64,000 bases of DNA from Alphaproteobacteria bacterium. Its GTDB lineage: Bacteria > Pseudomonadota > Alphaproteobacteria > GCA-2731375. Made by a program: the position numbers and the translations under genes. The stretch lies in NCBI GenBank assembly GCA_965225945.1, contig CBDDBZ010000025.1, forward strand, positions 32,001 through 96,000, in the 5' to 3' direction. Numbering within the stretch: the first letter of the stretch is position 1; the number at the start of each line of letters is the position of its first letter. Below, piece after piece: positions 2,119 through 31,057 of this stretch. The notes under the pieces were generated by a model. It worked only from the letters and a program-made list of their open reading frames with translations, was not told the DNA's origin and made no database searches.

Positions 2119-3470
2119 TCCGCCGCCCGGCGGACCCCGGGGCCGCGCGCATCGTCCATCGCCCGGGCCCAGCGGGCATAGAAGCCGCGCTGGTTCTGCT
2201 CCGAGACGTCCTCGCTCGCCTGGATCTCGCCGCCGAGCCAGGCGACCGGCCAGCCCTTGCGCTCGTGCCCCATGCCCATCGCGTAGTGGAAGTCGTGGCG
2301 GCGCGCGATGGTGCCGCGCGCGCCCTCGTGCGCATAGCCCCAGTTTTCCATGTCGTCCTGCTCGGTCAGGCCCGAGGGGCCTTGATAGCGGATGACGTAG
2401 TGCCTGAGCACGTCCTTGACCTCGTCGGGCGCGGCGGCCGGCACCAGGAAGATGCGCCAGGTCTCGGTCTCGTGCGGGCCGTTCGGATGCCAGGTCCCCA
2501 TCGATTGGACGCCGTTCGCGTAGGAGACGTTGGGGAAGATGGTGCCGCCGTGGCCGAACCAGCGGGCCTTCTCGCCCAGCCTCTCCTGGCGCTGGCGGTA
2601 GCACTCGCGGAAATAGTCCTCGACCACCGCCCTCTCCTGGTAGGTCGGAAGATAGTCGTAATCGTCCTTGAACAGCTCGCCCCGGGCGGCGTGACCCTCG
2701 GGGTGGATGGAGATGTTGAGCTTGTGGACCTCGCGGGCCCGCGACACCGTGTCGTAGGTATGGCGGCCCTTCACGCCCGCGGGCGAGAGCACGACCTGAT
2801 CGACCGAGGCATGACTGGATGCGTGGTAATAGTCGCCGGCGAAATTCTCGGCGGCGAATTTCCAATTGTTGGGCATGCGCCATTTGAAGATGCCGCCGAA
2901 CGCCTCCCAGGGCCCGTGGGTGCCGTCGGGCAGCTCGCAATAGTCGTCGAAGTAGAACCTGAGGTCGCCCAGATAGCTCTCGAATTCCGCTGTCTCCTGG
3001 TCCCAACAGGCGAAGACGTAGCCGTGGTAGCTCGCCACCCGGGCCTCGATCAGGCCCAATTTCTCGACCTCGAGCTCGCCGTGGTAGCCGGACTCGAGCT
3101 TGGGCACGCCGATCAGCGCGCCTTGGTCGGAATAGACCCAGGCGTGATAGGGGCAAGAGAACCGGCGCGCGTTGCCTTCGTCGTAGCGACAGACCCGCAT
3201 GCCCCGGTGCCGGCAGGTGTTGAGGAAGACGTGCAACGTGCCGTGCCGGTCGCGGTTGAGGATCACCGACTCCTCGCCCATGCGGGCGAGCACGAAGTCG
3301 CCGCTCGCCGCGATCTGGCTTTCGTGGCCGACGAAGAGCCACGAGCGCGCGAAGATCCGCTCCAGTTCTTCCTCGTAGATCGCCTGGCTGGTGAAGATGT
3401 CGCGGCTGATCAGGCCGCGCTCCAGATCCACATGGCCGCCCTGATAGGCGCCCCGCTCGCCTGTCCGCAT
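2115..3470 (-). CDS. Rieske aromatic ring-hydroxylating dioxygenase alpha subunit (HcaE/BphA-like)
   Basis: Rieske motifs CRHRG and CPYHAW; Fe(II) site ENFAGDYYHASSH and QDDMENW. Confidence 0.93.
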   Translation of the reverse strand: MRTGERGAYQGGHVDLERGLISRDIFTSQAIYEEELERIFARSWLFVGHESQIAASGDFVLARMGEESVILNRDRHGTLHVFLNTCRHRGMRVCRYDEGNARRFSCPYHAWVYSDQGALIGVPKLESGYHGELEVEKLGLIEARVASYHGYVFACWDQETAEFESYLGDLRFYFDDYCELPDGTHGPWEAFGGIFKWRMPNNWKFAAENFAGDYYHASSHASVDQVVLSPAGVKGRHTYDTVSRAREVHKLNISIHPEGHAARGELFKDDYDYLPTYQERAVVEDYFRECYRQRQERLGEKARWFGHGGTIFPNVSYANGVQSMGTWHPNGPHETETWRIFLVPAAAPDEVKDVLRHYVIRYQGPSGLTEQDDMENWGYAHEGARGTIARRHDFHYAMGMGHERKGWPVAWLGGEIQASEDVSEQNQRGFYARWARAMDDARGPGVRRAAE

Positions 3471-3580
3471 CGCGCTGGCCTCCGCCTCGTTGCAACCCGC
3501 CCCGAACTATAGCGAGCCGGCGATCGGAGCGACAACACGGGACGGCGTCGAGGCTCGAGCCACGCGCCGCGCCGCCCCGC

Positions 3581-4267
3581 TCAGCCGGTGAGCCTGAGGT
3601 TCTGCGGGAACATGTAGCGCCGTGCCTCCTCGTCCGTCTCGGTCTTGAAGGCGTGGCTGGCGGCCAGCGCCACCGCCCGCTCCGCGGCGGGCCGGGCGTC
3701 GATCTCAGCCACCAGGCGAGCCACATTGGCCTGTTTGGCCGCGCCCTCCTCGCCCAGAACCCGTGGCATCAGCCGGGCCCAGCCCCAGACCGCCATGTCG
3801 ACGATGGTGTAGCGCTCGCCCAGCATGTAGGGGCGCTCGGCGAGGCGCGCGTCGAGGATGGCGAAGTGGCGCTCGGCCTCGTAGTCGTAACGGTTGACGG
3901 CATAGGGCATCGGCTCGGGCGCAAACACCTTGAAGTGCACCGCCTGGCCGGAATAGGGACCGACGCCCGAGGCGACGAACATCAGCCACGACAGGAGCTG
4001 GCCGCGCATGGCGGGCGTATCCTCCGGCAGGAAGCGGTCCGTCTTCTCCGCCAGGTAGAGCAGGATGGCGTTGCTGTCGAAGATGGGCTGGCCATCCTCG
4101 ACGATCGCCGGCGCCTTGGCGTTGGGATTGATGGCCAAGAATTCGGGCGCGAACTGCTCGCCCTTGCGGGTATCGAGCGGCACCGCCTCGTAGGCCAGCC
4201 CGGATTCCTCCAGGAACAGCGCCACCTTCATCGGGTTGGGCGCGGCGTTGTAGTAAAAGGTCAACAT
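3581..4267 (-). CDS. Glutathione S-transferase family protein (YfcG-like)
   Basis: PNPMKVALFLEE, INPNAKAPAI and FDSNAILLYLAEK motifs. Confidence 0.92.
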   Translation of the reverse strand: MLTFYYNAAPNPMKVALFLEESGLAYEAVPLDTRKGEQFAPEFLAINPNAKAPAIVEDGQPIFDSNAILLYLAEKTDRFLPEDTPAMRGQLLSWLMFVASGVGPYSGQAVHFKVFAPEPMPYAVNRYDYEAERHFAILDARLAERPYMLGERYTIVDMAVWGWARLMPRVLGEEGAAKQANVARLVAEIDARPAAERAVALAASHAFKTETDEEARRYMFPQNLRLTG

Positions 4268-4479
4268 CTCGGGCCTCTCTCTCTTTCGTTCCGATATCGT
4301 CGAGGCGCAGCCTAGCCGACTTTCACGGGCTTGTACCGGCGGCGAGGGGAGATTCGCTCGATGCGCCAGAGGGCCGGCGGCCAGTCAACGGCGAATATGA
4401 CATGACCGGCGCCAGCCCCCTATCATGGCTCGGCGCCTTGCCGCGCCGCGCGGCCGTCGAGGGACTCAGCGAGCGAACC

Positions 4480-5427
4480 ATGAGCGCCTATCTCATACGT
4501 CGTCTGGTTTCCTTCTGCCTGACGCTCTGGGGCGCCTCGGTGGTGATCTTCCTGATGCTGGAGATCCTGCCCGGCGATCCGGCGCTGACCATGCTGGGAA
4601 TCGACGCGCCGGAAAGCGCGATCATCGCACTGCGCCACGAACTCGGCCTCGATCGCACCGCGCCCACCCGCTATCTCGACTGGATCGCCGGCCTCGCGCG
4701 GGGCGAGATGGGGCTCTCCTTCACCTACCAGGTGCCGGTGGCGGAGCTTTTCGCCGAGCGGCTGGAGCTGACCCTGCCGCTGGCGCTCGGCGCCATGGCG
4801 GTGGCGACGATATTGGCCCTCGGCCTCGGTCTCTATGCCGCCAGCCGGCACAACCGGGCCGGCGACTGGGGGGTGATGGCGGCGAGCCAGCTCGGCCTCG
4901 CGATCCCCAACTTCTGGCTCGCCATCCTGCTGATCATCCTGTTCGCGCTGATCCTGCAATGGACCACCTCGGGCGGCTTCCCCGGCTGGGCGGATGGGGT
5001 GGGCCCGGCGCTCGCCGCGCTGATCCTTCCCGTCACCGCGCTCGGCGTCACCCTGGCGGCGATCCTGGTCCGCATCACCCGGTCCTCGGTGCTGGAGGTG
5101 CTGGGAGAGGATTTCGTCCGCACCGCGCGGGCCAAGGGCCTGGGGCGCGGCGCGACGCTCAGGCGCCACGTGCTCAGGAACGCGATGATCCCGGTGGTGA
5201 CGATGATGGGCTTGCTGTTCGCCGATGCGCTCGCCGGCACCATCGTCATCGAGAACGTGTTCTCGCTGCCCGGCATGGGCAAGCTCATCTTCGGCGCCAT
5301 CTCCAATCGCGATCTGATGGTGGTGAAGAACGCGGTGCTGCTGCTGGCGGCGCTGGTGGTGGTGGTCAATTTCGCGGTCGATCTGCTCTACGCCCTGATC
5401 GACCCCCGCGTCCGGATCCGGGATTAG
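4480..5427 (+). CDS. Peptide/nickel ABC transporter permease (DppB/OppB family)
   Basis: LPGDPA N-terminus, [11 protein letters not shown] loop and C-terminal DPR. Confidence 0.92.
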   Translation: MSAYLIRRLVSFCLTLWGASVVIFLMLEILPGDPALTMLGIDAPESAIIALRHELGLDRTAPTRYLDWIAGLARGEMGLSFTYQVPVAELFAERLELTLPLALGAMAVATILALGLGLYAASRHNRAGDWGVMAASQLGLAIPNFWLAILLIILFALILQWTTSGGFPGWADGVGPALAALILPVTALGVTLAAILVRITRSSVLEVLGEDFVRTARAKGLGRGATLRRHVLRNAMIPVVTMMGLLFADALAGTIVIENVFSLPGMGKLIFGAISNRDLMVVKNAVLLLAALVVVVNFAVDLLYALIDPRVRIRD

Positions 5428-5455
5428 TGGATAGAATCCACCAGGGGCGAGCCCG

Positions 5456-6301
5456 ATGAGGGGTGCGAGCGCCATATTGGCCCGCATGGCCCGGCACCGC
5501 GCCTTCCTCTTCGGCGCCGGGCTCACCGGCCTGATGGCCGGCGCCGCCGTGGTCTCGCTCTTCTGGACCCCGCATTCAGCCACCCTCATCGTCGTTCGCG
5601 CCCGATTGCGGCCGCCCAGTTGGGAGCATTGGCTCGGCACCGACCAGTTCGGCCGCGACATCCTCTCGATGATCATGGCCGGGGCCCAGACCTCGATCCT
5701 GGTCGGTCTGATCGCGGTCTCGATGGGCCTGGTTCTGGGCGTCTCGCTCGGCCTGCTGGCGGCGGCCCGGCGCGGCCTCGTCGAGGAAGCGGTGATGCGG
5801 CTGAACGACCTCGCCTTCGCCTTCCCCGTGGTGCTGCTGGCGATCCTGATCACCGCCGGTTGGGGCCCGGGCATCCTCAACGCCATCCTGGCGCTCGCCG
5901 TGATCAACGTGCCGATCTTCGCCCGCCTGGTCCGGGGCGCGGCGCTCGTCGTGTGGGCGCGGGAGTTCGTGCTCGCGGCGCGCGCCGCCGGCAAGGGCGA
6001 CCTCAGGATCACGCTCGAACACGTGCTGCCCAACGTCACCAGCGTGATCGTGGTGCAGGCGACGATCAGCTTCGCCATCGCCATCCTGGCGGAGGCGGCC
6101 CTGAGCTACCTCGGCGTCGGCTCCCAGCCGCCCGACCCGAGTTGGGGGCGGATGCTGGCCGAGAGCCAGAACTTCCTCTTCATGGCGCCGACCTTGGCGG
6201 TTTGGCCGGGGCTCGCCATCGTGCTCTCGGTGCTGGGGCTGAACCTGATGGGCGACGGGCTCCGCGACCTCCTCGATCCGCGCCTCGCCCGGCGGCGGTA
6301 G
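5456..6301 (+). CDS. Peptide/nickel ABC transporter permease (DppC/OppC family)
   Basis: HWLGTDQFGRD, EAALSYLG and GDGLRDLLDPR motifs. Confidence 0.92.
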   Translation: MRGASAILARMARHRAFLFGAGLTGLMAGAAVVSLFWTPHSATLIVVRARLRPPSWEHWLGTDQFGRDILSMIMAGAQTSILVGLIAVSMGLVLGVSLGLLAAARRGLVEEAVMRLNDLAFAFPVVLLAILITAGWGPGILNAILALAVINVPIFARLVRGAALVVWAREFVLAARAAGKGDLRITLEHVLPNVTSVIVVQATISFAIAILAEAALSYLGVGSQPPDPSWGRMLAESQNFLFMAPTLAVWPGLAIVLSVLGLNLMGDGLRDLLDPRLARRR

Positions 6302-6307
6302 CGGCCC

Positions 6308-7306
6308 ATGGCCCTCCTCGAGGTCAGCGATCTGGTGGTCGAGCTGGAAACGCCACGCGGCCGGGCCCGGGCGCTCCGGGGCGTCGAATTTGTGCTGGAG
6401 GCCGGCCGGACCCTCGGCATTGTCGGTGAATCCGGCTCCGGCAAGTCGATCACCGCGCTCGCGCTGATGGGCCTGGCGCCGGAGGGCGCGCGCCTCGAGG
6501 GCCGGGTGAGGCTGGCGGGCCAAGAGCTGCTGGGCCTCCCCGAGTCTGAGATGCAGCAGGTGCGCGGCCGCCGGATGGCGATGATCTTTCAGGAGCCGAT
6601 GACCTCCCTCAACCCCGTGCACCGGGTCGGCCGGCAGATCGGCGAGGCGCTGGCGCTGCATCGCGCGCTTCGTGGGCCCGAGGCGCGGGCGGAGGCGACG
6701 CGGCTCTTGGCCCGCGTCGGCCTGCCCCGCCCGGAGCGCCTGGTCGACGCCTATCCGCACGAGCTCTCGGGCGGACAGCGCCAGCGGGTGATGATCGCCA
6801 TGGCCTTGAGTTGCGGGCCCGACGTGCTGATCGCCGACGAGCCGACGACGGCCCTCGACGTCACCATCCAGGAGAGGATCCTCGGCCTGATCAACCACCT
6901 GGTGGACGCCGACGGCATGGCGCTGATCATGATCAGCCACGATTTCGGCGTCATCGCCCGGACCTGCGAGGAGGTCCTGATCATGTACGCCGGCTTGGTG
7001 GTCGAGCGGGGCGCGACGCGCCGCATCCTGGAGGCCCCGGCGCATCCCTACAGCCGGGGCTTGATCGCGGCGGTGCCGCGCCTCGGCCAGGGGCGGGAGC
7101 GGGGTCGGGAGGCGCGGCTCAGGACCATTCCCGGCGTGATGGCGGAACTCGACGACCTGCCCGCCGGCTGCCCCTTCGCCGATCGCTGCGACCTCGCCGA
7201 CCAGGGTTGCGTCGAGCGGACGCCTGGGATGCGGGCGGTGGCGGTGGACGGAACCCAGGCCGCCGCCTGCCACAAGCTCGATTCCGTAGAGGCGGCGGCG
7301 CCATGA
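6308..7306 (+). CDS. ABC transporter ATP-binding protein (DppD family)
   Basis: GESGSGKS, LSGGQRQR, ADEPTTALD and a Cys-rich C-terminus. Confidence 0.93.
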   Translation: MALLEVSDLVVELETPRGRARALRGVEFVLEAGRTLGIVGESGSGKSITALALMGLAPEGARLEGRVRLAGQELLGLPESEMQQVRGRRMAMIFQEPMTSLNPVHRVGRQIGEALALHRALRGPEARAEATRLLARVGLPRPERLVDAYPHELSGGQRQRVMIAMALSCGPDVLIADEPTTALDVTIQERILGLINHLVDADGMALIMISHDFGVIARTCEEVLIMYAGLVVERGATRRILEAPAHPYSRGLIAAVPRLGQGRERGREARLRTIPGVMAELDDLPAGCPFADRCDLADQGCVERTPGMRAVAVDGTQAAACHKLDSVEAAAP

Positions 7307-22154: not shown

Positions 22155-23921
22155 CTATTCCGGCAAGCCGGCGCGGCGCATCGCGTCGAGCAGGCGCGTG
22201 CGCGTCTCCGAGTGCATGCTCGCCATCACATTGTCGAAAAAAGCCACCGATATCTCGGGGTCGAGGCGGACCAGGCGCTCCCGCGCCTCCCCGGCCTCCT
22301 CCAGTCGTCCGAGCATCGCGGCACTGGCGGCGTAGAGGGCGTGAGATGCGAGATATCGGGGGTTGCTCGTGAATGCCCGCGCGCCCCAAGTCATGGCATC
22401 CTCGTAACGGGCGGCGGCGAAATGGGCAAGGCAGAGCCCGGACTGCTGTAGGTAGCCGAAGGGATCGTTCGGGCTGAGGCGCATCGCCCGCTCGATGCAC
22501 GCGACCCCCTCGTCCGCCTCGCCCCGCCAGACGTGGACGCGGCCCCGGAATTGCCAGGCGAAGGCGAGATTGGGGTTCGTCTCCAGGGCACGTGTCATCA
22601 GCGAAAGGCACTCGTCCAGCCTGTTCTCGACCAACATCATCCATGTCGCCAGGATCACCTGCCCGAAGGGATCGGCGTTGTCGAGCGCGACCGCCGCCTC
22701 GCTCAGCGCCAACCCCTTGCCCGAGAGTTCTTTCGAGGCTGCCCTGGGGTCGGTGACGTATTCGAGGAGATAGGACCAAGCGGCGGCGGCGTGGGCGGCG
22801 GCGAACCTCGGGTCCAGACGCGTGGCCTGTTCGAGCAGGGCGCGCCCTCGCGCGAAGCCCTCCGGGGTCAAGCCGTGAATGTGCGAAAGGCCTTGGTAAT
22901 AGCAGTCATGGGCGGGCAGGCTGTCGGTGGGCCTGCGCTCGCCCCGGCGGGCTTCGGAGCGGCGAATCTCCGGCTCGATCCGCCCGACGATCGCCTCGGT
23001 GATTTCGTCCTGCAGATCGAACAGGTCGTCGATGCGGCGATCGTAGCGCTCCGCCCACAGGTGCCCGCCGCTCTCGGCCTCGATGAGCTGGGCGTTGATG
23101 CGGATGCGATCCCGGGACTTCCGGACGCTGCCCTCGAGCACGTATCGAACGCCCAGTTCGCGGCCCACTTGTTTGATGTCGACGTTCCGTCCCCGGAAGA
23201 CGAAGGATGAATTGCGGGCGATGACGAAGAGTTGGTGAAAGCACGAGAGGCTGGTGATGATGTCCTCCGCCGTGCCGTCGGCGAAGTATTCCTGTTCCGC
23301 ATCGTCCGACATGTTGGCGAAGGGCAGCACGGCGATCGAGGGTTTCTCCGGCAACGACAGTGATTCGGAATCCGCCGGTGGTGCCGCCGCCGCTTCCGGG
23401 TCCCAGCGCCAGACCCTGATCGGGGTCACGATGTTCTTCAACTCGCGCGGGCCGGTGTCGGTGAAGACGAGATCGACCCTGCCGCCGAGATGCAGGTGCG
23501 CCGCGTCGGAGACCGCGATCCCGCCGACGGGCGCGATCTCTTGCAGGCGGGCCGCGATGTTGACGCCGTCGCCGAGGAGATCGCGTCCCTCGACCACCAC
23601 GTCGCCGAGATTGACGCCGATCCGGATTCGAATGCGCCGGTCCTCCGGCAGGTCGGCGAAGCGGGCCGGAAGCGCGCGCTGAATCTCGGCGGCCGCGGTG
23701 ACCGCGTCGACCACGCTTTCGAACTCGGCCAGCAGCCCGTCGCCCATCAGCTTGACGACGCGGCCCCGATGACGCTTCAGGGCCGGCTCGACCAGTTCCT
23801 TTCGCAGCGCTCGCAAGGCCGATAGCGTTCCGGCCTCGTCGAGGCCGACGAGGCGCGAATAGCCGACGACGTCGGCGGCCAGGATCGCCGCGAGCCTGCG
23901 CCTCGTCGTCCCCTCCGCCAT
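22155..23921 (-). CDS. Class III adenylate/guanylate cyclase with TolB-like and TPR domains
   Basis: AAILAADVVGYSRL, MGDG, GDGVNIAARLQ, KPSIAVLPFANMS and TPR-like helical repeats. Confidence 0.92.
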   Translation of the reverse strand: MAEGTTRRRLAAILAADVVGYSRLVGLDEAGTLSALRALRKELVEPALKRHRGRVVKLMGDGLLAEFESVVDAVTAAAEIQRALPARFADLPEDRRIRIRIGVNLGDVVVEGRDLLGDGVNIAARLQEIAPVGGIAVSDAAHLHLGGRVDLVFTDTGPRELKNIVTPIRVWRWDPEAAAAPPADSESLSLPEKPSIAVLPFANMSDDAEQEYFADGTAEDIITSLSCFHQLFVIARNSSFVFRGRNVDIKQVGRELGVRYVLEGSVRKSRDRIRINAQLIEAESGGHLWAERYDRRIDDLFDLQDEITEAIVGRIEPEIRRSEARRGERRPTDSLPAHDCYYQGLSHIHGLTPEGFARGRALLEQATRLDPRFAAAHAAAAWSYLLEYVTDPRAASKELSGKGLALSEAAVALDNADPFGQVILATWMMLVENRLDECLSLMTRALETNPNLAFAWQFRGRVHVWRGEADEGVACIERAMRLSPNDPFGYLQQSGLCLAHFAAARYEDAMTWGARAFTSNPRYLASHALYAASAAMLGRLEEAGEARERLVRLDPEISVAFFDNVMASMHSETRTRLLDAMRRAGLPE

Positions 23922-25147
23922 GCGCGCCCGTCTCCCGAGGTTTCGCCCGAGGCAAGTTAGCGCACGGAGCATACTGACTCCACCGACCCCGCGTGAAATG
24001 GGTTCGGTTGACCGCACCATCGCGGAACGGAAAAATGCCTTGCCCCGTACAGGAGAGGGACCAACCCGCCCATGACGTCACGCAGCCTTCGCGGCCAGGT
24101 GGCGATCGCCGGCATCGGCGAGACGACCTATTACAAGCACGGCCGCTCGCCCGACCCGGAGTTCAAGCTGGCCCTCATGGCGATCCTGAGGGCGGCCGAG
24201 GACGCCGGGATCGATGCGCGCGAGATCGACGGCTTCGCCTCTTATAGCAACGACCGGAACGAGCCCTCGCGGATCGCCGCGGCGCTGGGCATCAAGGAGC
24301 TGCGCTTCGCCAACATGCAGTGGGGCGGCGGCGGTGGCGGCGGAGCGGCCGCCGTCGGCAACGCGGCCGCCGCCGTGGCGACGGGGCTGGCAAACTGCGT
24401 CGTGGTCTTCCGCGCGCTGGCCCAAGGCCAGTTCGCCCGCTTCGGCCAGGGCTCGCAAAGCCCCACCATCTCCGGCGACAAGGCATACGAAGCGCCCCAT
24501 GGCATGATGTCGCCGGGCCAGCGCTACGCCATGAAGGTGATGCGGTTTTTCGAGGAGCACGCCATTGCGCCCTCGGCGCTGCGCGGCATCGCGCTCGCCT
24601 CCTACCACCACGCGCAATCGAATCCCCGCGCGGTGATGCACGGCCGGCCGCTGGACGAGGCGAGCTACGATGCCTCGCGCTGGATCGTCGAACCGTTCCG
24701 CCTCTACGACTGCTGCCAGGAAAACGACGGCGCCGCCGCGCTGATCGTGGTGCCGGCGGAGCGCGCCCGCGACCTGGCCCACCCGCCCTGTTATTTGCTA
24801 AGCGTCGCCGCCGGCTCCGAGCATCGCTGCGCCGCGCCGAGCCACAACGCGCCCAGCTACGCCAGCGCCAGCTTTACCACCGTGGCCCCGCACCTATACG
24901 CGATGGCGGGCCTCGGAGCGAATGTCGGTGGCGATGAAAAACCGCGCTTAGATGGTGATTTCAGCGACATCGGGCATCGTGGCGCTGTAGCTGCGTGGTT
25001 TGCAGGCGGGAGTTGGCTCGGCGCAGCGGTGGGTAAGTAGCCCGCCGCAGCGACCGCCAAGAGTCTGGCGGCGGCGGGCTGCTTATCCACCGCGGGCGGG
25101 CGTCTCGATTCCTGTTTTGGCTGGCTGGCGGCGGCGGTTCCGCGGAC

Positions 25148-25175
25148 CTGACAAGGGGAGCCGCGGGAGTACACT
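25148..25175 (+). promoter_or_regulatory. Putative sigma70-type promoter of the transposon operon
   Basis: CTGACA-N16-TACACT directly ahead of a structured leader; motif match only. Confidence 0.4.
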
Positions 25176-25323
25176 CGGGCCGCTGAGAACGATGCGGCGC
25201 CGGCCCCGTTTGCTTGCTGGCAACGACCGGCACCGCACCCCCCGAGCCATGCAAGGCACGACCCATATGCGCAGTATCGTGCGGGTTTGGGCGTGGGTCC
25301 ACCCCGTTCTCATCGGCTGCGCG

Positions 25324-25764
25324 ATGAAGAACACCGCCCGCCTGTTCAACTGCGCCTCGTGCCATCAACAGGTGGTTCTCTGCCGGCACTGCGACCACGG
25401 CAACATCTACTGTTCACGGAGCTGCAGCGATCGGGTGCGCCGGCGATCGCAGCGCCATGCCGGGCAGCGCTACCAGAACAGCCGGCGGGGCCGTCACAAG
25501 CATGCTGAGCGCCAGCGGCGCTATCGCGAACGCCGGCGGCGCCGGACGCCGGTGAATCGGCGCCGCGGGCAGGAAGTGACGCATCACCCTTTGACCGCCG
25601 CGCGGCGGCGTCCTGTTGTGGTGCGGACGCCGGCAGGGCGTCCCGGAACACGGCCCTTCGGGCACGAGCGGCCCGCCAGGGTCTTCCGCTGCGATCGCTG
25701 CGGCCGGTTCTGCGGGCAGGCGGTCTATCCGGGGCTGCGCCCGACGGGAAAGGGGGTGAGATGA
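25324..25764 (+). CDS. Cys-rich, Arg-rich putative Zn-finger protein upstream of istA
   Basis: CASC, CRHC, YCSRSC and a C-terminal CDRC; its stop overlaps the istA ATG (ATGA). Confidence 0.75.
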
Positions 25765-27264
25765 CCATCGACAAGGAGACCCGCGCGGAGATCCTGCGCC
25801 TGTATCACGTCGAGAAGTGGACGGTCGGCACGATCACACGCCAGCTCGGCGTGCATCGCTACACCGTCGAGCGCCTCCTCACCGCGGCCGGCGAGCCCCG
25901 GGACGCGAGGTCGCCCAGGCCGTCGATGATCGATCCATACGTGCCGTTCATCGCCGAGACGCTGGCATCCTGGCCGACGCTGCCCGCCAGCCGGCTCTAC
26001 CAGATGGTGCGCGAACGCGGCTATCCGGGCGGCGGCGACCACTTCCGTCATCTGCTCAGCCACTTCAGGCCCAGGCCCGTGGCCGAGGCCTATCTGCGCC
26101 TCAAGACCCTTCCCGGCGAGCAGGCCCAGGTCGACTGGGGACACTTCGGCAAGGTGACGATCGGCCGCGCGGAGCGCCGCCTGATGGGCTTCGTGATGGT
26201 TCTCAGCTACTCGCGGCGGATCTTCCTGCGCTTCTACCTCGACGCCGGGATGAGCAACTTCCTGCGCGGCCATGTCGAAGCCTCGAGGCGTGGCAGGGCG
26301 TGCCCCGCGAGCTCTGGTACGACAACCTGAAGAGCGTCGTGCTGGAGCGCCGCGGCGCCGCCATCCGGTTCAATCCCCGGATCCTCGACCTCGCCGGCCA
26401 CTACCACTTCCTGCCCAAGCCCGTCGCGGTCGCGCGCGGCAACGAGAAGGGGCGCGTGGAGCGGGCGATTCGCTATGTCCGGACCAGCTTCTTCGCCGCC
26501 CGCCGGTGGCGCGATATCGACGATCTCAACGCCCAGGCCCTGGCCTGGTGCCACGGCATCGCCGCCGACCGCCCCTGGCCCGAAGACCGCTCGATCACCG
26601 TGCGCGAGGCCTTCGAGCGGGAACGCGGCTCTCTCATCGCGCTGCCCGGCGATCCCTTCCCCGACCACGACCGGGTCGAGGTCGCCATCGGCAAGACCCC
26701 CTACGCCCGCTTCGATCTCAACGATTACAGCGTGCCGCACACCCATGTGCGGCGCACCCTCGTCGTGGTCGCGACGCTCGACGAGGTGCGCATCCTCGAC
26801 GGTGTGGACGTCATCGCCAGCCATCCGCGCAGCTTCGACAAGGCGGCCCGCATCGAGAACCCCGAGCACATCGCCGAGCTGGTCAGGCGCAAGAGCCATG
26901 CCCGCCGCCTTCGCGGCCAGGACCGCTGGTCCAGGCCGCGCCCAACAGCGAGCGCCTGCTCGCCGAGGCCGCCCAGCGCGGCGGCTATATAGGCGCCACC
27001 GTCGCCGCCCTGTTGCGCCTCCTCGACGCCTACGGCGCCGCCGAGCTCGAGGCGGCCATCGACGAGGCCCTGAAGCGGGACGTTCCCCATCCCAACGCCG
27101 TGCGCCTGAGCCTGACCCGGCGGCGCGAGCTGCGGCACCAACCCCCGCCCATCCCCGTCGAACTGCCCGGCGATCCGAGAGTGCGCGACATCACTGTCCG
27201 CGATCACGACCTCGTCGGATACGACGGGCTGGCCGGCGAACCCGAGGAGGACAGCGAGCAATGA
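25761..27264 (+). CDS. istA: IS21-family transposase IstA with two apparent single-base frameshifts (near 26282 and 26928)
   Basis: DDE motifs [15 protein letters not shown] and EKGRVER plus [10 protein letters not shown], spread over three consecutive frames. Confidence 0.88.
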
Positions 27265-28049
27265 ACGATACCCTCATGGGCCGTGCCCGGGCGCTCGGCC
27301 TGCACGGCCTCGCCGCCCACTGGGGCGAGGTCGCCGGGCATGACTGGCCCGCTGCGCTGGTCGCCTGGGAAGAGGAGGAACGGCGAAGCCGCAGCCTCAA
27401 GCGCCGCCTCGCCGACGCCCGCCTCGGACAGTTCAAGCCGCTCGCCGACTTCGACTGGGCATGGCCGCGCCGCTGCGACCGCATGGCCGTCGAGGATCTC
27501 ATGAGCCTCGAGTTCCTCAACGAGGCCGCCAACGTCGTCCTGGTCGGCCCAAACGGCGTCGGCAAGTCGACCATCGCCGCCAATATCGCCCACCGCGCCG
27601 TCCTCGAGGGCCACACCGTGCGCTTCGCCACCGCGGCCAGCATGCTCGGCGAGCTCGCCGCCCTCGACAGCGACACCCTGCTTCAGCGCAGGCTGCGCTT
27701 CTACGCCCGCCAGCACCTGCTGGTGATCGACGAGGTCGGATACCTGTCCTACAGCAACCGCCATGCCGATCTGCTGTTCAACATCGTCTCCAGCCGCAGC
27801 CAGCAGAACTCCACCATAATCACCACCAACCGGCCCTTCGCCGAGTGGGGTGAGGCCTTCCCCAACGCCGCCTGCCTCGTCGCCCTGGTCGACCGCCTCG
27901 TCCACAACGCCGAGATCATCGCCATCGACGCCGAGTCCTGGCGCCGCAAGGAGGCCGAGGAACGCCAGAAGCAGCGCAGCGCCGAGCGCCGCCGGCGGCG
28001 AGCCGGCAAGGCCGGCGCGCAGGACCGCGGGGAACCGCCGCCGGCGTAG
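27261..28049 (+). CDS. istB: IS21-family AAA+ ATPase IstB
   Basis: Walker A GPNGVGKS, Walker B LLVIDEVG, TTNRPFAEW and DRLVHNA motifs. Confidence 0.93.
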   Translation: MNDTLMGRARALGLHGLAAHWGEVAGHDWPAALVAWEEEERRSRSLKRRLADARLGQFKPLADFDWAWPRRCDRMAVEDLMSLEFLNEAANVVLVGPNGVGKSTIAANIAHRAVLEGHTVRFATAASMLGELAALDSDTLLQRRLRFYARQHLLVIDEVGYLSYSNRHADLLFNIVSSRSQQNSTIITTNRPFAEWGEAFPNAACLVALVDRLVHNAEIIAIDAESWRRKEAEERQKQRSAERRRRRAGKAGAQDRGEPPPA

Positions 28050-28051
28050 CC

Positions 28052-28942
28052 ATGGATGGTCCCCGCCTCTGGGACCGGCGGGTGCGGGCCGAGGCCCTGC
28101 GAGGCTATCCCCTCGAAGACGTCGTCCGCCGCCTCGGCTACCGCCGCGATCCCACCGATGCCGCGCGCTGGAGGCGTCCCGGATCCGTCGTCAGCATCAA
28201 CGGCTTTATGTTCTACGAACATCTGCGCGGCGGGGGCGGAGCGATCGACCTGGTAATCCATGCCTGCCGGTGCACCGTGCCCGAGGCCCTCGGCTTCTTC
28301 TCGGAACTGCCGTGCCGTGACCGGTTCCCGGCCGATCGCCACCCGAAGCCGCCGTGCCCGGACCGCCACTGGCCCGCCATCCAGAGCTACCTCGTCGAGC
28401 AGCGCGGCCTCGCGGATGTGCTCGTCGCCCTGTGCCGCGACCTCGGCTTGCTCTACGCCGACCGCCACGGCAACGCCGTGTTCGTCCGCCGAAACGCGGC
28501 CGGCGAGGCTCTCGGCGCCGAGATCGTCCCTGCCGCGGCGCCACGCCGCCTCGCGCCGACCGGCGCCGCCGCGCGCGGCGGCTTCTGGATGTCGTGGGAA
28601 CCCGACTGGCCGAACTCCGTCATCCTCGCCAAGAACGCAATCGACGCCCTGTCGGTCCTCTCCCTCCACCTCGTCCCGGCCGGGCGCAAGGGATGCGCCG
28701 TGGTCTCAACCGGCGGCGCCACCGCAAGCCTCCCCGAATGGATCGAGGCCTGGAACCCCGGCCGGATCTTCTGCGCCTACGACGCCACCCGCCAGGGCGA
28801 TGACGCCGCGGCACGGCTCATCCGAAACGACAGCAGGGTCGTCCGCCTGCGCCCTGCCCTCGACGGCCTGGACTGGAACGACATGCTCATGCGCGACCGC
28901 GCCGGCGAACCGCTCCAGATCGATGACCGGCCCCTCGACTGA
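28052..28942 (+). CDS. Primase-like protein with DUF3991/TOPRIM-type architecture and a degenerate active site
   Basis: GGGAIDLV, YLVEQRGL, LYADRHGNAVF, AIDALS, STGG, CAYDA..GD and DWND motifs. Confidence 0.75.
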   Translation: MDGPRLWDRRVRAEALRGYPLEDVVRRLGYRRDPTDAARWRRPGSVVSINGFMFYEHLRGGGGAIDLVIHACRCTVPEALGFFSELPCRDRFPADRHPKPPCPDRHWPAIQSYLVEQRGLADVLVALCRDLGLLYADRHGNAVFVRRNAAGEALGAEIVPAAAPRRLAPTGAAARGGFWMSWEPDWPNSVILAKNAIDALSVLSLHLVPAGRKGCAVVSTGGATASLPEWIEAWNPGRIFCAYDATRQGDDAAARLIRNDSRVVRLRPALDGLDWNDMLMRDRAGEPLQIDDRPLD

Positions 28943-29388
28943 ATAGCCACAGCGCGAAACAAAATCAGCCAAGCCCAAAAGCATCCCGTCAGCCAACCGC
29001 CACCGACCGCTCAAAAAGAGCACCATATAAGCGCACCCTGGAACCACCGCTAACAAGCGAAAGACGTCGATGTGGTGCAGTCTTACGAGAACTTCACCGG
29101 CGGCGTGCTGGTGAGCCTGGTCGAGCACGGCTTTTTCGCGCCAGAGGAAGCCGCCGAGTTCCTGACCAAGGAGAACCTGATCGCGCCGTCGGGCCGCCTG
29201 CCGCTCAACACCAGCGGCGGCAATCTGGCCGAATGCTACATGCACGGGCTGGAGCTACAGTTGGAGGCGATCCGTCAGGTCCGGGGCTCCTCCACCGCGC
29301 AGGTGCCCGACGCCGAGGTCTCCATGGTCTGTTCCGGCCCCCTGGTGAGCCCGGTCAGCAGCCTGATCCTGGGCGCGGAGGCGACGCT

Positions 29389-29841
29389 GTGAGACCTGCG
29401 CCGAAGCGCTATCTCCCGGCCGGCCTGCCGATCCCGGTGGCCGAGGCCGACGGCCTCTCGGCGCCTTATTGGCAGGGCCTGCGCGAGGAAGTGATCCGGG
29501 TGCAGAAGTGCGGCGGCTGCGGCGTGTTGCAATGGGGCCCGGAATGGATCTGCCATCGTTGCCATTGCTTCGATCTCGGTTGGACCGAGGTCCAGGGGCG
29601 GGGGCGGATCTACAGCTGGGAGCGCTCGTGGCATCCGGTGCACCCCGCGCTGAAGGACCACGGACCCTATATCGTCGTGCTGGTGGAACTGACGGGGACG
29701 GGAGGGCTTCGCATGATCGGCAACCTGCTGGGCGATCCCAGGCAAAATGTGCGCGTCGGCTCGCAAGTCGAGGCCGCCTTCGAGCACCATGGCGACGCCG
29801 AGCCACCCCATAGCCTGCTGCAATGGCGCCATGCCGAGTGA
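29389..29841 (+). CDS. Zn-ribbon/OB-fold (DUF35) protein, partner of the thiolase-like protein
   Basis: QKCGGC, ICHRC, GRGRIYSW and PYIVVLVEL motifs; GTG overlaps the thiolase stop. Confidence 0.88.
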   Translation: MRPAPKRYLPAGLPIPVAEADGLSAPYWQGLREEVIRVQKCGGCGVLQWGPEWICHRCHCFDLGWTEVQGRGRIYSWERSWHPVHPALKDHGPYIVVLVELTGTGGLRMIGNLLGDPRQNVRVGSQVEAAFEHHGDAEPPHSLLQWRHAE

Positions 29842-29857
29842 TAGCCGGGAGGACGAA

Positions 29858-31057
29858 ATGAGCGAACGGACGATCAACGAGCCGAATCTCTGGCGGCTGG
29901 AGACGCCGGGCGCGGCCGGCTGGGAATGGTCGGCGCGGCCGGACGCGGCGCGGAAATATTTCATGGTCTCGAGCGACTGCCACGCCAACGAGCCGGCCGA
30001 TCTCTGGGCGCTACGGATCGAGCCGGCCTATCGCGACCGCATTCCCCGGGTCGAGGTCGACGAGAACGGCGTCCGGTGGCGGGTGAGCGAAGGCCATCGC
30101 CCCGACCGCATCCGCGATCAGAGCTTCGAGGGCGAAGACAAGCTCCGGGCCGCCGCCGGCGCCCTCATCCCCGAGCGGGCGGGGGACCTGAAGCGGGACG
30201 GTATCGACGTCGAGATCATCTTTCCCAACAAGGGCCTCGCCATGTGGGCGACGCCGGATGCGGTGTTCGCCAACGCCCAGTGCCGAGTCTGGAACGACTG
30301 GGCCGCCGAGACCTATGGCAAGCACGATTCGATGGTCCCCGTCGCGGCGATCGCCACCGGCGACCTCGAGGGCGCGATGGGTGAGATCGAGCGCACGGCG
30401 GCGATGGGCTTTTCCATCCTGACGCTTCCCTGCAAGCCGGTCTGGGGCGGCCACGACGTCGAGCACGTCAACTACAACCTGCCACATTTCGATTCCCTCT
30501 GGGCGCTGGTCGAGGAGGTCGACATGACGCTGACCTTCCACGTCTCGACCGGGCGCGATCCGCGCGCCGCGCGCGGCAACGGGGGTGCCGTGATCAACTA
30601 CGTGACCCACTCGCTCGCGCCGACGATCGAGCCGGTGGCGAACCTCTGCGCCTCCGGCGTGCTGGAGCGGTTTCGCAAGCTCCGCTTCGCCACCGTCGAG
30701 GCCGGGATCGGCTGGGTGCCGTGGCTGCTGGACGCCATGGACGAGGCCTACCGCAAGCACCACATGTGGGCGCGGCCCAAACTTCAAGGCCTGCCGAGCG
30801 ACTATTACCGGGCGCACGGCGGCTCGACCTTCCAGGAGGATCCGGCCGGGCTGGGGCTCGCGGTGGCCCACGACCTGGTCGACAATTTCATGTGGGCCAA
30901 CGACTACCCGCACCACGAAAGCACCTGGCCTCATTCGGCCGAGGCGATCGAGCGGACCATGGGGCATCTCGACGACGGCCAGCGGGCCAAGCTCCTGGGC
31001 CTGAACGCGGCCCGTCTGTTCGGCCTCGAGGTGCCGGAGGGCCAGCGCTTGGTTTGA
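29858..31057 (+). CDS. Amidohydrolase family 2 protein
   Basis: SSDCHANEP, TFHVSTG, VEAGIGWVP and WANDYPHHE motifs. Confidence 0.9.
   Translation: MSERTINEPNLWRLETPGAAGWEWSARPDAARKYFMVSSDCHANEPADLWALRIEPAYRDRIPRVEVDENGVRWRVSEGHRPDRIRDQSFEGEDKLRAAAGALIPERAGDLKRDGIDVEIIFPNKGLAMWATPDAVFANAQCRVWNDWAAETYGKHDSMVPVAAIATGDLEGAMGEIERTAAMGFSILTLPCKPVWGGHDVEHVNYNLPHFDSLWALVEEVDMTLTFHVSTGRDPRAARGNGGAVINYVTHSLAPTIEPVANLCASGVLERFRKLRFATVEAGIGWVPWLLDAMDEAYRKHHMWARPKLQGLPSDYYRAHGGSTFQEDPAGLGLAVAHDLVDNFMWANDYPHHESTWPHSAEAIERTMGHLDDGQRAKLLGLNAARLFGLEVPEGQRLV

Follow-up and report, generated by a model that had tools for sequence, protein, structure and literature searches.

A four-gene branch of the IS21 insertion sequences with a structured leader RNA, a zinc-finger gene and a degenerate TOPRIM protein

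We describe an insertion sequence of the IS21 family in a 64,000-nucleotide stretch of DNA from an Alphaproteobacteria bacterium (assembly GCA_965225945.1, contig CBDDBZ010000025.1, positions 32,001 to 96,000 of the forward strand); this whole stretch is the window, and its positions are used throughout. The element spans 24923–29055, a 4,133-bp unit with TG...CA ends, and AGCGAA lies on both sides of it, read directly as the left (24917–24922) and right (29056–29061) copies of a target-site duplication. The left terminal inverted repeat (TGTCGGTGGCG...GCGCTTAGATGGTG; 24923–24957, plus strand) has TGT, CGGTGG and GCGCTTAnATGGTG in common with the right one (29021–29055, minus strand). IS21 family members carry several repeated transposase-binding motifs within each end; here one extra copy of the terminal motif was found near the right end (at about 28995–29008) and none at the left end at up to 3 mismatches. 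Between the ends, all on the plus strand, follow a structured leader RNA, a zinc-finger (ZnF) gene, istA, istB and an open reading frame (ORF) for a TOPRIM-type protein, ORF4; ATGA is shared by ZnF and istA at 25761 and by istA and istB at 27261, and 2 bp (28050–28051) separate istB from ORF4.

The insertion splits a thiolase-like gene into a 5' piece (24072–24922, plus strand) and a 3' piece (29062–29392, plus strand) that matches Thiolase_C_1 at 1.2e-17 and is followed by an OB_ChsH2_C gene. Excising the element and one AGCGAA in silico rejoined the two pieces as a single 393-aa ORF. A contig joining 24916 to 29056 exists in a public sponge-metagenome DNA run, at a depth of 8 versus ~133 for the element, so the uninterrupted thiolase site occurs in nature; sponge metagenomes are also among the public runs that contain the element. 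These results bear out a first-pass annotation of the window, made from the letters alone, which had described the TG...CA ends, the 6-bp duplication, the 4,133-bp length, the split thiolase-like gene and the gene spacing.

Judged by IstA, IstB, the TG...CA ends and the target-site duplication, the element is unambiguously a member of the IS21 family. The istA gene (25761–27264, plus strand) encodes an IS21-type DDE transposase, whose intact 501-aa form scores 249.1 bits against the equivalog model NF033546 (cutoff 160) and matches the IS5376 IstA in the PDB at 8.5e-41. Directly after it, istB (27261–28049, plus strand) encodes a 262-aa AAA+ helper ATPase that matches PF01695 (1e-53), NF038214 (204.3 against a cutoff of 200) and the IS5376 IstB in the PDB (4.6e-34). 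ISfinder describes IS21 elements as having two ORFs and about 1.75–2.6 kb, a description that does not cover this element, whose copies are 4,133–4,141 bp long and contain four conserved ORFs besides a leader region of 400 bp. The first-pass annotation treated istA as one gene, which does not hold for the window copy: it reads in three frames (25761–26330, 25817–26992 and 26272–27264) owing to two single-base deletions, after 26282 (TT to T) and after 26924 (GG to G). Neither deletion occurs in the other 18 of the 19 full copies in this genome, which encode the 501-aa IstA, and contigs from public runs, which are multi-copy consensus sequences, carry both missing bases. The deletions are either real mutations or errors of the assembly consensus.

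What lies in the window is a single copy of an IS21-family insertion sequence of 4.13–4.14 kb that has been active recently. The 6.27-Mb assembly holds 19 full-length copies at 99.1–100% identity, plus fragments, with lengths of 4,133–4,141 bp and a modal length of 4,141 bp; this number of copies puts the element far beyond chance. All 19 begin with TGTCGG and 18 of the 19 end with CTAACA. Direct duplications of 5–7 bp flank 15 of the 19 copies, two of which have identical flanks, leaving 14 distinct sites, and the four copies that lack a duplication may have arisen by recombination between copies. Across the 30 duplications read, lengths were 5 bp in 21, 6 bp in 5 and 7 bp in 4 (the ISfinder range for the family is 4–8 bp), and these 30 sites gave no target consensus. 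Insertion orientation relative to the GC skew of the 30-kb flanks was 9 versus 10, no bias, though the test is weak, the assembly being in 39 contigs and lacking a mapped origin. The reactive intermediate of the IS21 family is a tandem or abutted-end junction; no joint of the right and left repeats was present among the contigs of four runs, and contigs drop rare forms.

Several further features of this genome concern the element and its kin. A 6-bp in-frame indel (GGCGAG) at 28228 in ORF4 divides the copies 12 versus 7, single-nucleotide polymorphisms at 25049 and 25622 each divide them 10 versus 9, and two sub-lineages of the element co-exist in the genome. Two additional copies are interrupted inside ORF4, at C39:307800–308063 (264 bp) and C27:62270–62601 (332 bp), by repeats with 53 and 167 blastn matches elsewhere in the genome that look like miniature inverted-repeat transposable elements. 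An ordinary two-gene IS21 element occupies dozens of places (e.g. C38:9132–11352); its IstA and IstB are 31% and 35% identical to those of the element studied here, and it lacks the ZnF gene, the TOPRIM gene and the leader RNA. Two IS21 lineages have thus expanded side by side in the genome. The PADLOC model named DrmD (PDLC02630) matches the IstB of the window element (27261–28049) at 3.5e-40, although this is an ordinary IstB, and the model could thus wrongly flag IS21 elements as defence systems. At C30:9340–10134 and C38:350–1144 lie TOPRIM paralogues that are truncated at the N terminus, share 63% identity with ORF4 and have no adjacent IstA or IstB; they may be remnants of a second four-gene element.

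The four-gene arrangement recurs well beyond this genome. Scanning species genomes with the TOPRIM alignment gave 47 loci, of which 37, with a TOPRIM of at least 55% identity, come from 15 other metagenome-assembled genomes (MAGs); a single closed alphaproteobacterial MAG supplies 22. The order ZnF–IstA–IstB–TOPRIM is present at 33 of the 37 loci, four of them with later insertions, while three begin within IstA at a contig end and one is a rearranged remnant. In the closed MAG the element is 4,049 bp long with duplications at 15 of 22 copies, and in another MAG it is ~4.28 kb long with 7- and 6-bp duplications; the TOPRIM gene lies inside the inverted repeats in both, as it does in the window, which agrees with the first-pass claim that the four genes moved together. 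The ORFs are intact in all 12 distinct elements, with gaps of at most 13 bp (ORF4 is whole in 10 and cut by a contig end in 2). Identities to the window proteins are 75–81% for IstA, 80–90% for IstB, 62–81% for ZnF and 55–68% for TOPRIM. Those hosts of the four-gene element that can be placed securely are alphaproteobacterial. Species genomes seldom contain it: a TOPRIM profile search of 400 genomes of the class turned up a single fragment, and one of 3 genomes of the family nothing, where not found does not mean absent.

The trees point to a common history of the four genes. In the IstA tree, which also has 43 other rows, the 13 four-gene elements group as a single clade (SH-aLRT 99; a quick search under LG+G4, rooted on the ordinary IS21 of this genome), a pattern that fits a single acquisition of the TOPRIM gene. 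The IstA and TOPRIM trees agree on all well-supported clades, (L011, L013, L036), (L039, L049) and (L012, L014), as well as on the grouping of the last two with L010 and L015. By these trees, the fourth-slot TOPRIM was acquired once and has co-diverged with IstA. The first-pass annotation had proposed checks on recurrence in other hosts and on agreement of the two trees, and both came out in its favour, as did its suggestion of an undescribed sub-family; we found no IS21 element with TOPRIM, DUF3991 or zinc-finger genes in the literature searched, though ISfinder may have a named entry for the subgroup. Ratios of nonsynonymous to synonymous substitution rates (dN/dS, by NG86) had medians over 65 pairs of 0.27 for IstB, 0.35 for IstA, 0.40 for ZnF and 0.57 for TOPRIM. 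Individual pairs gave 0.32–0.44 for ZnF and 0.48–0.62 for ORF4 with upper bounds below 1, the bootstrap upper bounds for four separate pairs being 0.55–0.71 for ZnF and 0.66–0.85 for TOPRIM. Read from these ratios, ZnF and ORF4 are both under purifying selection.

Upstream of the ZnF gene we detected a structured leader RNA (25180–25323, plus strand), recognised by covariation and described by a covariance model, R1. In four-gene elements the ~165 nt upstream of the ZnF start are more conserved than coding DNA. We aligned 71 leaders with plain MAFFT, leaving out 10 of 81 distinct leaders that differed and that R1 misses; RNAalifold on the raw alignment gave only 5 pairs of helix P1, and the structure was built from per-sequence minimum-free-energy (MFE) folds, its pairs then being counted on the unfitted alignment. 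Helix P0 (GCCGUUGAGA with UCUCAUCGGC) closes the structure; its other parts are the hairpin P1 of 13 bp, a two-part P2, a weak P3 and an alternative hairpin P5. Paired cells made up 78.5% of the alignment at these positions versus 30–48% in slid controls, and cells changed on both sides numbered 236 versus 67–100. The covariation score was 0.286 versus 0.07–0.11, a value reached by none of 500 shuffles. Compensatory change was seen in 12 of the 13 pairs of P1, one of which occurs as G-C 35 times and as A-U 30 times, and the G-U pairs of the leader fit the sense strand. Helix P5 pairs CAUCGGC with GCCGAUG, which includes the AUG of ZnF; it is 76% paired, with support about equal to that of P0, and the two helices are mutually exclusive, both using the same CAUCGG.

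A sigma-70-like promoter (CTGACA, 16 nt, TACACT; 25148–25175, plus strand) lies just before the leader. It is a consensus match only, with 1 found versus 0.3 expected, though the leader alignments show conservation of its TGACA and TAnAnT, and it is predicted to start a transcript at the 5' strand of P0. R1 matches the window at 25147–25329 with 118.7 bits and matches 22 places in this genome, all within copies of the element and none in ordinary IS21 copies. The model finds 75 of 91 related loci, 71 of which are in its seed, and also two plasmid elements outside the seed. A strictly filtered search of 150 genomes from the phylum, in which R1 scored 17 candidates for each genome, found nothing, which is not the same as absence. 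A search of Rfam up to E 1 yielded nothing relevant in the element, and one up to E 0.1 yielded nothing in six others. The leader may represent a new class of structured regulatory RNA, one that probably occurs thousands of times.

A separate long hairpin with 26-nt arms that are 88% complementary occupies 25026–25093 (plus strand), between the left repeat and the promoter-like site. Some four-gene elements keep it, others have another hairpin in its place, and Rfam offers only a sub-threshold match to mir-B6.

The ZnF gene (25324–25764, plus strand) encodes 146 aa with an N-terminal finger of the form CxxC-x6-CxxC-x6-C-x3-C, an arginine-rich helix and a C-terminal CxxCx3C. It belongs to no Pfam or NCBIfam family. 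The spacing of its first six cysteines and its YC..C motif resemble MYND fingers by eye, and PF01753 (zf-MYND) matches 8 of 28 members weakly (best E 0.051) and the window protein not at all. A word-index search returned 218 homologues, the named ones all called 'hypothetical protein', and the cluster representatives matched by a profile search numbered 3,768 at a threshold of E 1e-3 and 2,462 at one of 1e-10. In a metagenome scan that gave 541 relatives and 80 retained loci, ZnF directly precedes IstA at 72 of the 80, and at 4 of the other 8 the contig stops after ZnF. The first-pass annotation had suggested that ZnF may be a transposition accessory dedicated to a four-gene sub-family; the gene, conserved and under purifying selection, is much older and more general than that.

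The element is thus shown to be a derived branch of a large IS21 subgroup that carries, in this order, a promoter-like site, a leader, ZnF, istA, istB and a gene in the fourth slot. In most members of the subgroup the fourth slot holds a small ORF of 62–83 aa (~70) that begins at the istB stop and is homologous across 29 loci (e.g. L080 3057–3281); it also occurs at L142 7190–7405 and L143 7191–7397 and on plasmids of Burkholderia thailandensis and Cupriavidus. Sister elements measure ~3.4–3.6 kb at the three loci that gave this size (L126, L079 and L065); ends were located at few of the 22 loci tried, and other matches were doubtful or a deletion derivative. When the small ORF is aligned from 27 of these 29 loci, the motif P.xW[ST]PEQALAVxELLDDLRxRIW precedes an acidic tail, with a C-terminal Phe in 24 of 27; three end in DDIPF and one in DDDIDF, and ..PPF endings also occur. 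Passages in two papers (PMC5872125, PMC3632105) give the SSB C-terminal hexapeptide as DDDIPF and state that DnaG primase binds the C-terminal region of SSB. No Pfam family matches the small ORF. Homology between it and ORF4 was rejected (hhalign probability 0.1). RefSeq plasmid records mostly leave the ZnF ORF unannotated and call the small ORF 'hypothetical protein', and because pipelines treat the two in this way, the boundaries of such elements are likely drawn wrongly in genomes.

The first-pass annotation had held that relatives without the TOPRIM gene would mark it as a one-off capture. Such relatives are the rule in the wider subgroup, where 1 of 40 loci with a complete IstB has it, and to that limited extent the refuting condition applies. 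Yet the gene is kept across a whole diverged clade and occupies a position that sister elements give to another small conserved gene; on this pattern, TOPRIM is not a one-off capture.

ORF4 (28052–28942, plus strand) encodes 296 aa with a DUF3991 domain and a degenerate TOPRIM domain. DUF3991 (PF13154) scores 36.5 bits against a cutoff of 24.5 and matches 27 of 28 family members; Toprim_2 is marginal in ORF4 itself (22.9 bits against 22.1) and matches 22 of the 28, Toprim_3 matching 25. Aravind et al. are said to have defined, in 1998, a Toprim signature of a conserved Glu and a DxD as metal-binding residues, and we take the corresponding positions of this family, assigned from that signature and the alignment, to be the catalytic ones. 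In ORF4 they read K194 at the Glu site and D244-A-T246 for DxD. We took a residue census of 120 listed homologues, leaving out 7 rows gapped at the sites. Among the 88 proteins with at least 55% identity the Glu site is E in 1, K in 39, G in 19, A in 18, D in 5, N in 4, T in 1 and R in 1, and the second Asp of DxD is D in none, T in 85, S in 2 and P in 1, whereas all 25 proteins below 55% identity keep both the Glu and the DxD. The change is visible in the alignment, where distant relatives read ..VESAIDA.. and ..YDADxxGD.. and the window clade ..AKNAIDA.. and ..YDATxxGD... The Toprim_2 match of ORF4 begins at model position 6, past the Glu motif, and that of the proteins outside the clade at position 1.

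Loss of the Glu and the second Asp throughout the clade makes a working primase unlikely, and ORF4 is probably a helper or adaptor rather than an enzyme. No Pfam family, and so no N-terminal zinc-binding primase domain, was found on residues 1–110 at E up to 1 in the 28 members, nor does the alignment show a conserved Cys or His cluster there. The protein is conserved in other respects: 35 columns are invariant across 28 TOPRIM sequences down to 45% identity, and the clade has its own C-terminal tail, ..GEPLxTDDRP[LI].., which the shorter members outside it lack. PADLOC assigned no defence family to ZnF, IstA, ORF4 or the small fourth-slot ORF.

One gene call (P0004), which matches ORF4 at 99% identity along 85% of its length, is fused to a reverse-transcriptase domain (PF00078), which suggests that a retroelement has inserted in or beside ORF4 in some copy elsewhere.

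The nearest relatives of ORF4 outside the clade lie in a second type of transposon. Eight loci encode a TOPRIM 42–51% identical to ORF4, and five of them show transposition or helicase-type genes upstream: the order is rve, AAA_22, AAA_25, TOPRIM at L044 and L045; AAA_25, TOPRIM at L047, where the contig is cut; and rve+Mu-transpos_C, AAA_22, TOPRIM at L050. At L052, rve+Mu-transpos_C is followed directly by a 548-aa frame with DUF3991, and a search at E up to 1e-5 showed no AAA family at that locus. Of the remaining three loci, one has only 420 bp upstream and two have other neighbours. The L050 element (2897–7033; genome G401) is ~4.12–4.15 kb long with TGTTGG..CCAACA ends, is present in at least 6 full copies at 98–100% identity, and has a 5- or 4-bp duplication in 2 of the 3 copies read. 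The TOPRIM proteins of the rve/AAA_22 elements have intact catalytic residues, and R1 has no match in these TniA/TniB-like elements. Because the nearest relatives of ORF4 lie in them, the TOPRIM family is tied to two systems of a transposase plus an AAA+ partner. We found no published description of an element combining rve/Mu-transpos_C, AAA_22 and DUF3991–TOPRIM.

We read the element as a four-gene branch of IS21 in which the leader acts as a gate, ORF4 is a non-catalytic adaptor and ZnF is a regulator, and give this combined reading a probability of roughly 0.62. The leader would act as a translational gate: P0 and P5 would compete for CAUCGG, and P5 would hide the AUG of ZnF. As ZnF, istA, istB and ORF4 are packed head to tail, such a gate would control the whole operon. 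ORF4 would make no primers and would instead be attached to the IstA/IstB machinery, most likely linking the strand-transfer product to host replication or repair proteins, a job that the protein with the SSB-like tail may do in the sister elements. ZnF may be a regulator or a nucleic-acid-binding partner, possibly of the leader itself.

A number of observations weigh against this reading. The slid control flatters the leader structure, because the sequences on which it was scored had also supplied the MFE folds behind it, and the window leader alone folds at an MFE of −67.8 kcal/mol with a z of only −2.13. Contigs from RNA libraries cover the element, where DNA carry-over is possible and the contigs do not show transcription, strand or ends. 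The catalytic positions of ORF4 were placed by the Toprim signature and an alignment rather than by structure, and a PDB profile search with the TOPRIM alignment gave no match at E up to 1. TOPRIM is the fastest-evolving of the four genes. It is present at 1 of the 80 metagenome loci (L057) and at 1 of the 40 with a complete IstB, and 14 of those 40 that lack it have at least 900 bp downstream; its absence from nearly all of the wider subgroup means that it is not needed for transposition as such. Since hhalign finds no homology between the small ORF and TOPRIM, the idea that they do the same job draws on position alone. The only fused IstB–TOPRIM found is one gene call with a single member, probably a frameshift. 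Many related loci sit on contigs of 4–6 kb that are almost wholly element, which makes their phylum labels (Dehalococcoidia, Gemmatimonadota, Pseudomonadales) unreliable and possibly binning errors.

The most serious rival, which we regard as possible at rather long odds, is that ORF4 is a passenger: a decayed DUF3991–TOPRIM remnant from a plasmid or an integrative and conjugative element (ICE), captured once downstream of istB and carried along through cheap co-transcription or for some unrelated benefit to the element or the host. Its absence from nearly all sister elements, its dN/dS of 0.57, the highest of the four genes, and its lost catalytic residues speak for this. Distant TOPRIM relatives are fused to MobV relaxases or carried on plasmids, and a passage in PMC4073490 places DUF3991/TOPRIM-like genes among the common ICE genes; where DUF3991 is mentioned in the literature passages found, it is an uncharacterised plasmid or ICE gene. 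Decay is harder to square with an ORF4 that is intact in 10 of the 10 distinct elements holding the whole gene, with dN/dS upper bounds below 1 and with the 35 invariant columns. A chance capture also leaves out that sister elements fill the same slot with a conserved gene and that the nearest relatives of ORF4 belong to another transposase-plus-ATPase element, not to plasmids; a benefit through defence finds no match to ORF4 among the PADLOC models.

We consider it improbable that ORF4 instead serves as a brake, an inactive look-alike that titrates IstB or a host factor such as a replicative helicase or primase partner and so limits copy number or makes transposition depend on the state of the cell. 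A retained fold with lost catalytic residues is typical of decoys, tight coupling after istB would fix the stoichiometry, and an elaborate translational gate suggests selection for restraint, but 19 full copies in this genome and at least 22 in another MAG do not look restrained. The version in the first-pass annotation, in which ORF4 would be a functional enzyme of primase type directing insertion towards replication forks or primed DNA, is very unlikely: the DUF3991 and Toprim_2 matches at or just above threshold, weak matches to PHROG DNA primases and the relation of IstB to the helicase loader DnaC (NCBIfam side matches) speak for it, and it founders on a Glu in 1 of 88 proteins and a second Asp in 0 of 88, on a Toprim_2 match that starts after the Glu motif at model position 6, on the lack of any zinc-binding primase domain among the matches found, and on 30 duplications without a target consensus and a 9-to-10 split of orientation against local GC skew, itself a weak test.

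Extending the adaptor reading, one may speculate, with low confidence, that the subgroup is an RNA-gated, replication-coupled branch of IS21. The leader would sense a metabolite, a host factor or the arginine-rich ZnF protein and would turn on the entire transposition operon, and the fourth slot would hold docking modules, an SSB-tip mimic in most elements and a dead DnaG-like TOPRIM here, that pass the strand-transfer complex to replication-restart or gap-repair proteins, while an active TOPRIM would do a related job in the TniA/TniB-like transposons. If true, this would suggest that DDE-plus-AAA+ transposition is connected with priming proteins in a general way that has so far escaped notice.

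The insertion probably affects its surroundings as well. Upstream of the split gene, 22155–24020 (minus strand) encodes a protein with Guanylate_cyc and TPR domains, and downstream, within 29233–31057 (plus strand), lie genes for an OB_ChsH2_C protein and an Amidohydro_2 protein. The thiolase-like/ChsH2-type operon, for a lipid or steroid side chain, has probably been disabled.

IS21 is a structural model for the activation of a DDE transposase by an AAA+ ATPase and has been described as a two-protein system; a passage in PMC12486865 says that canonical IS21 'encodes two key proteins'. A large IS21 subgroup nevertheless carries three further conserved parts, namely a folded leader RNA, a zinc-finger protein and a fourth-slot protein, which are candidates for self-control of expression and for handing the strand-transfer product over to host replication or repair. 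With IS21 and IS5376 the element has in common clear IstA and IstB homologues, TG..CA ends, duplications of 5–7 bp and an istB that overlaps the end of istA. It differs from them in its length of 4.13 kb, its ~400 bp of promoter and structured leader, a ZnF gene before istA and a TOPRIM gene after istB; canonical IS21 elements are about 2–2.6 kb long according to ISfinder. The wider ZnF–IstA–IstB subgroup has the same leader RNA (R1 scores of 64–163 bits), the ZnF gene and the IstA/IstB lineage, but its fourth protein is an SSB-tip-like one of 62–83 aa rather than a TOPRIM, in elements of ~3.4–3.6 kb.

Control at the start codon has a precedent in IS10 and IS50, where the start sites of the transposase are occluded from translation (fold-back inhibition). 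As in those elements, an RNA hairpin (P5) would hide the start codon of the first gene; here, unlike there, its competitor would be a long-range helix enclosing a conserved multi-stem domain of ~150 nt, a layout like that of a riboswitch expression platform. In Tn7 and Mu, accessory proteins (TnsD, TnsE and TniQ; at Mu ends, host restart proteins) tie transposition to targets or to replication, and those systems likewise combine a DDE transposase and an AAA+ matchmaker with further proteins, though these have no sequence relation to ORF4 or ZnF and no target preference was detected for the present element in the sites read. How the strand-transfer product is handed to the host is understood for phage Mu and not for IS21. 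The DUF3991–TOPRIM proteins of plasmids and ICEs have the same two Pfam domains as ORF4 but are 27–35% identical to it, are often fused to MobV relaxases and occur in mobilisation contexts. The closest parallel is with the rve/Mu-transpos_C and AAA_22 elements, which also encode a DDE transposase, an AAA+ partner (not found in L052) and then a TOPRIM, and which are likewise multi-copy, ~4.1 kb long and bounded by TG..CA. Their transposase and ATPase pair is TniA/TniB-, Tn552- or Mu-like by domain content, they have no ZnF gene or leader RNA, and some add AAA_25. A dead TOPRIM site here and active relatives in that second transposon type together make a clean natural experiment on what this protein contributes.

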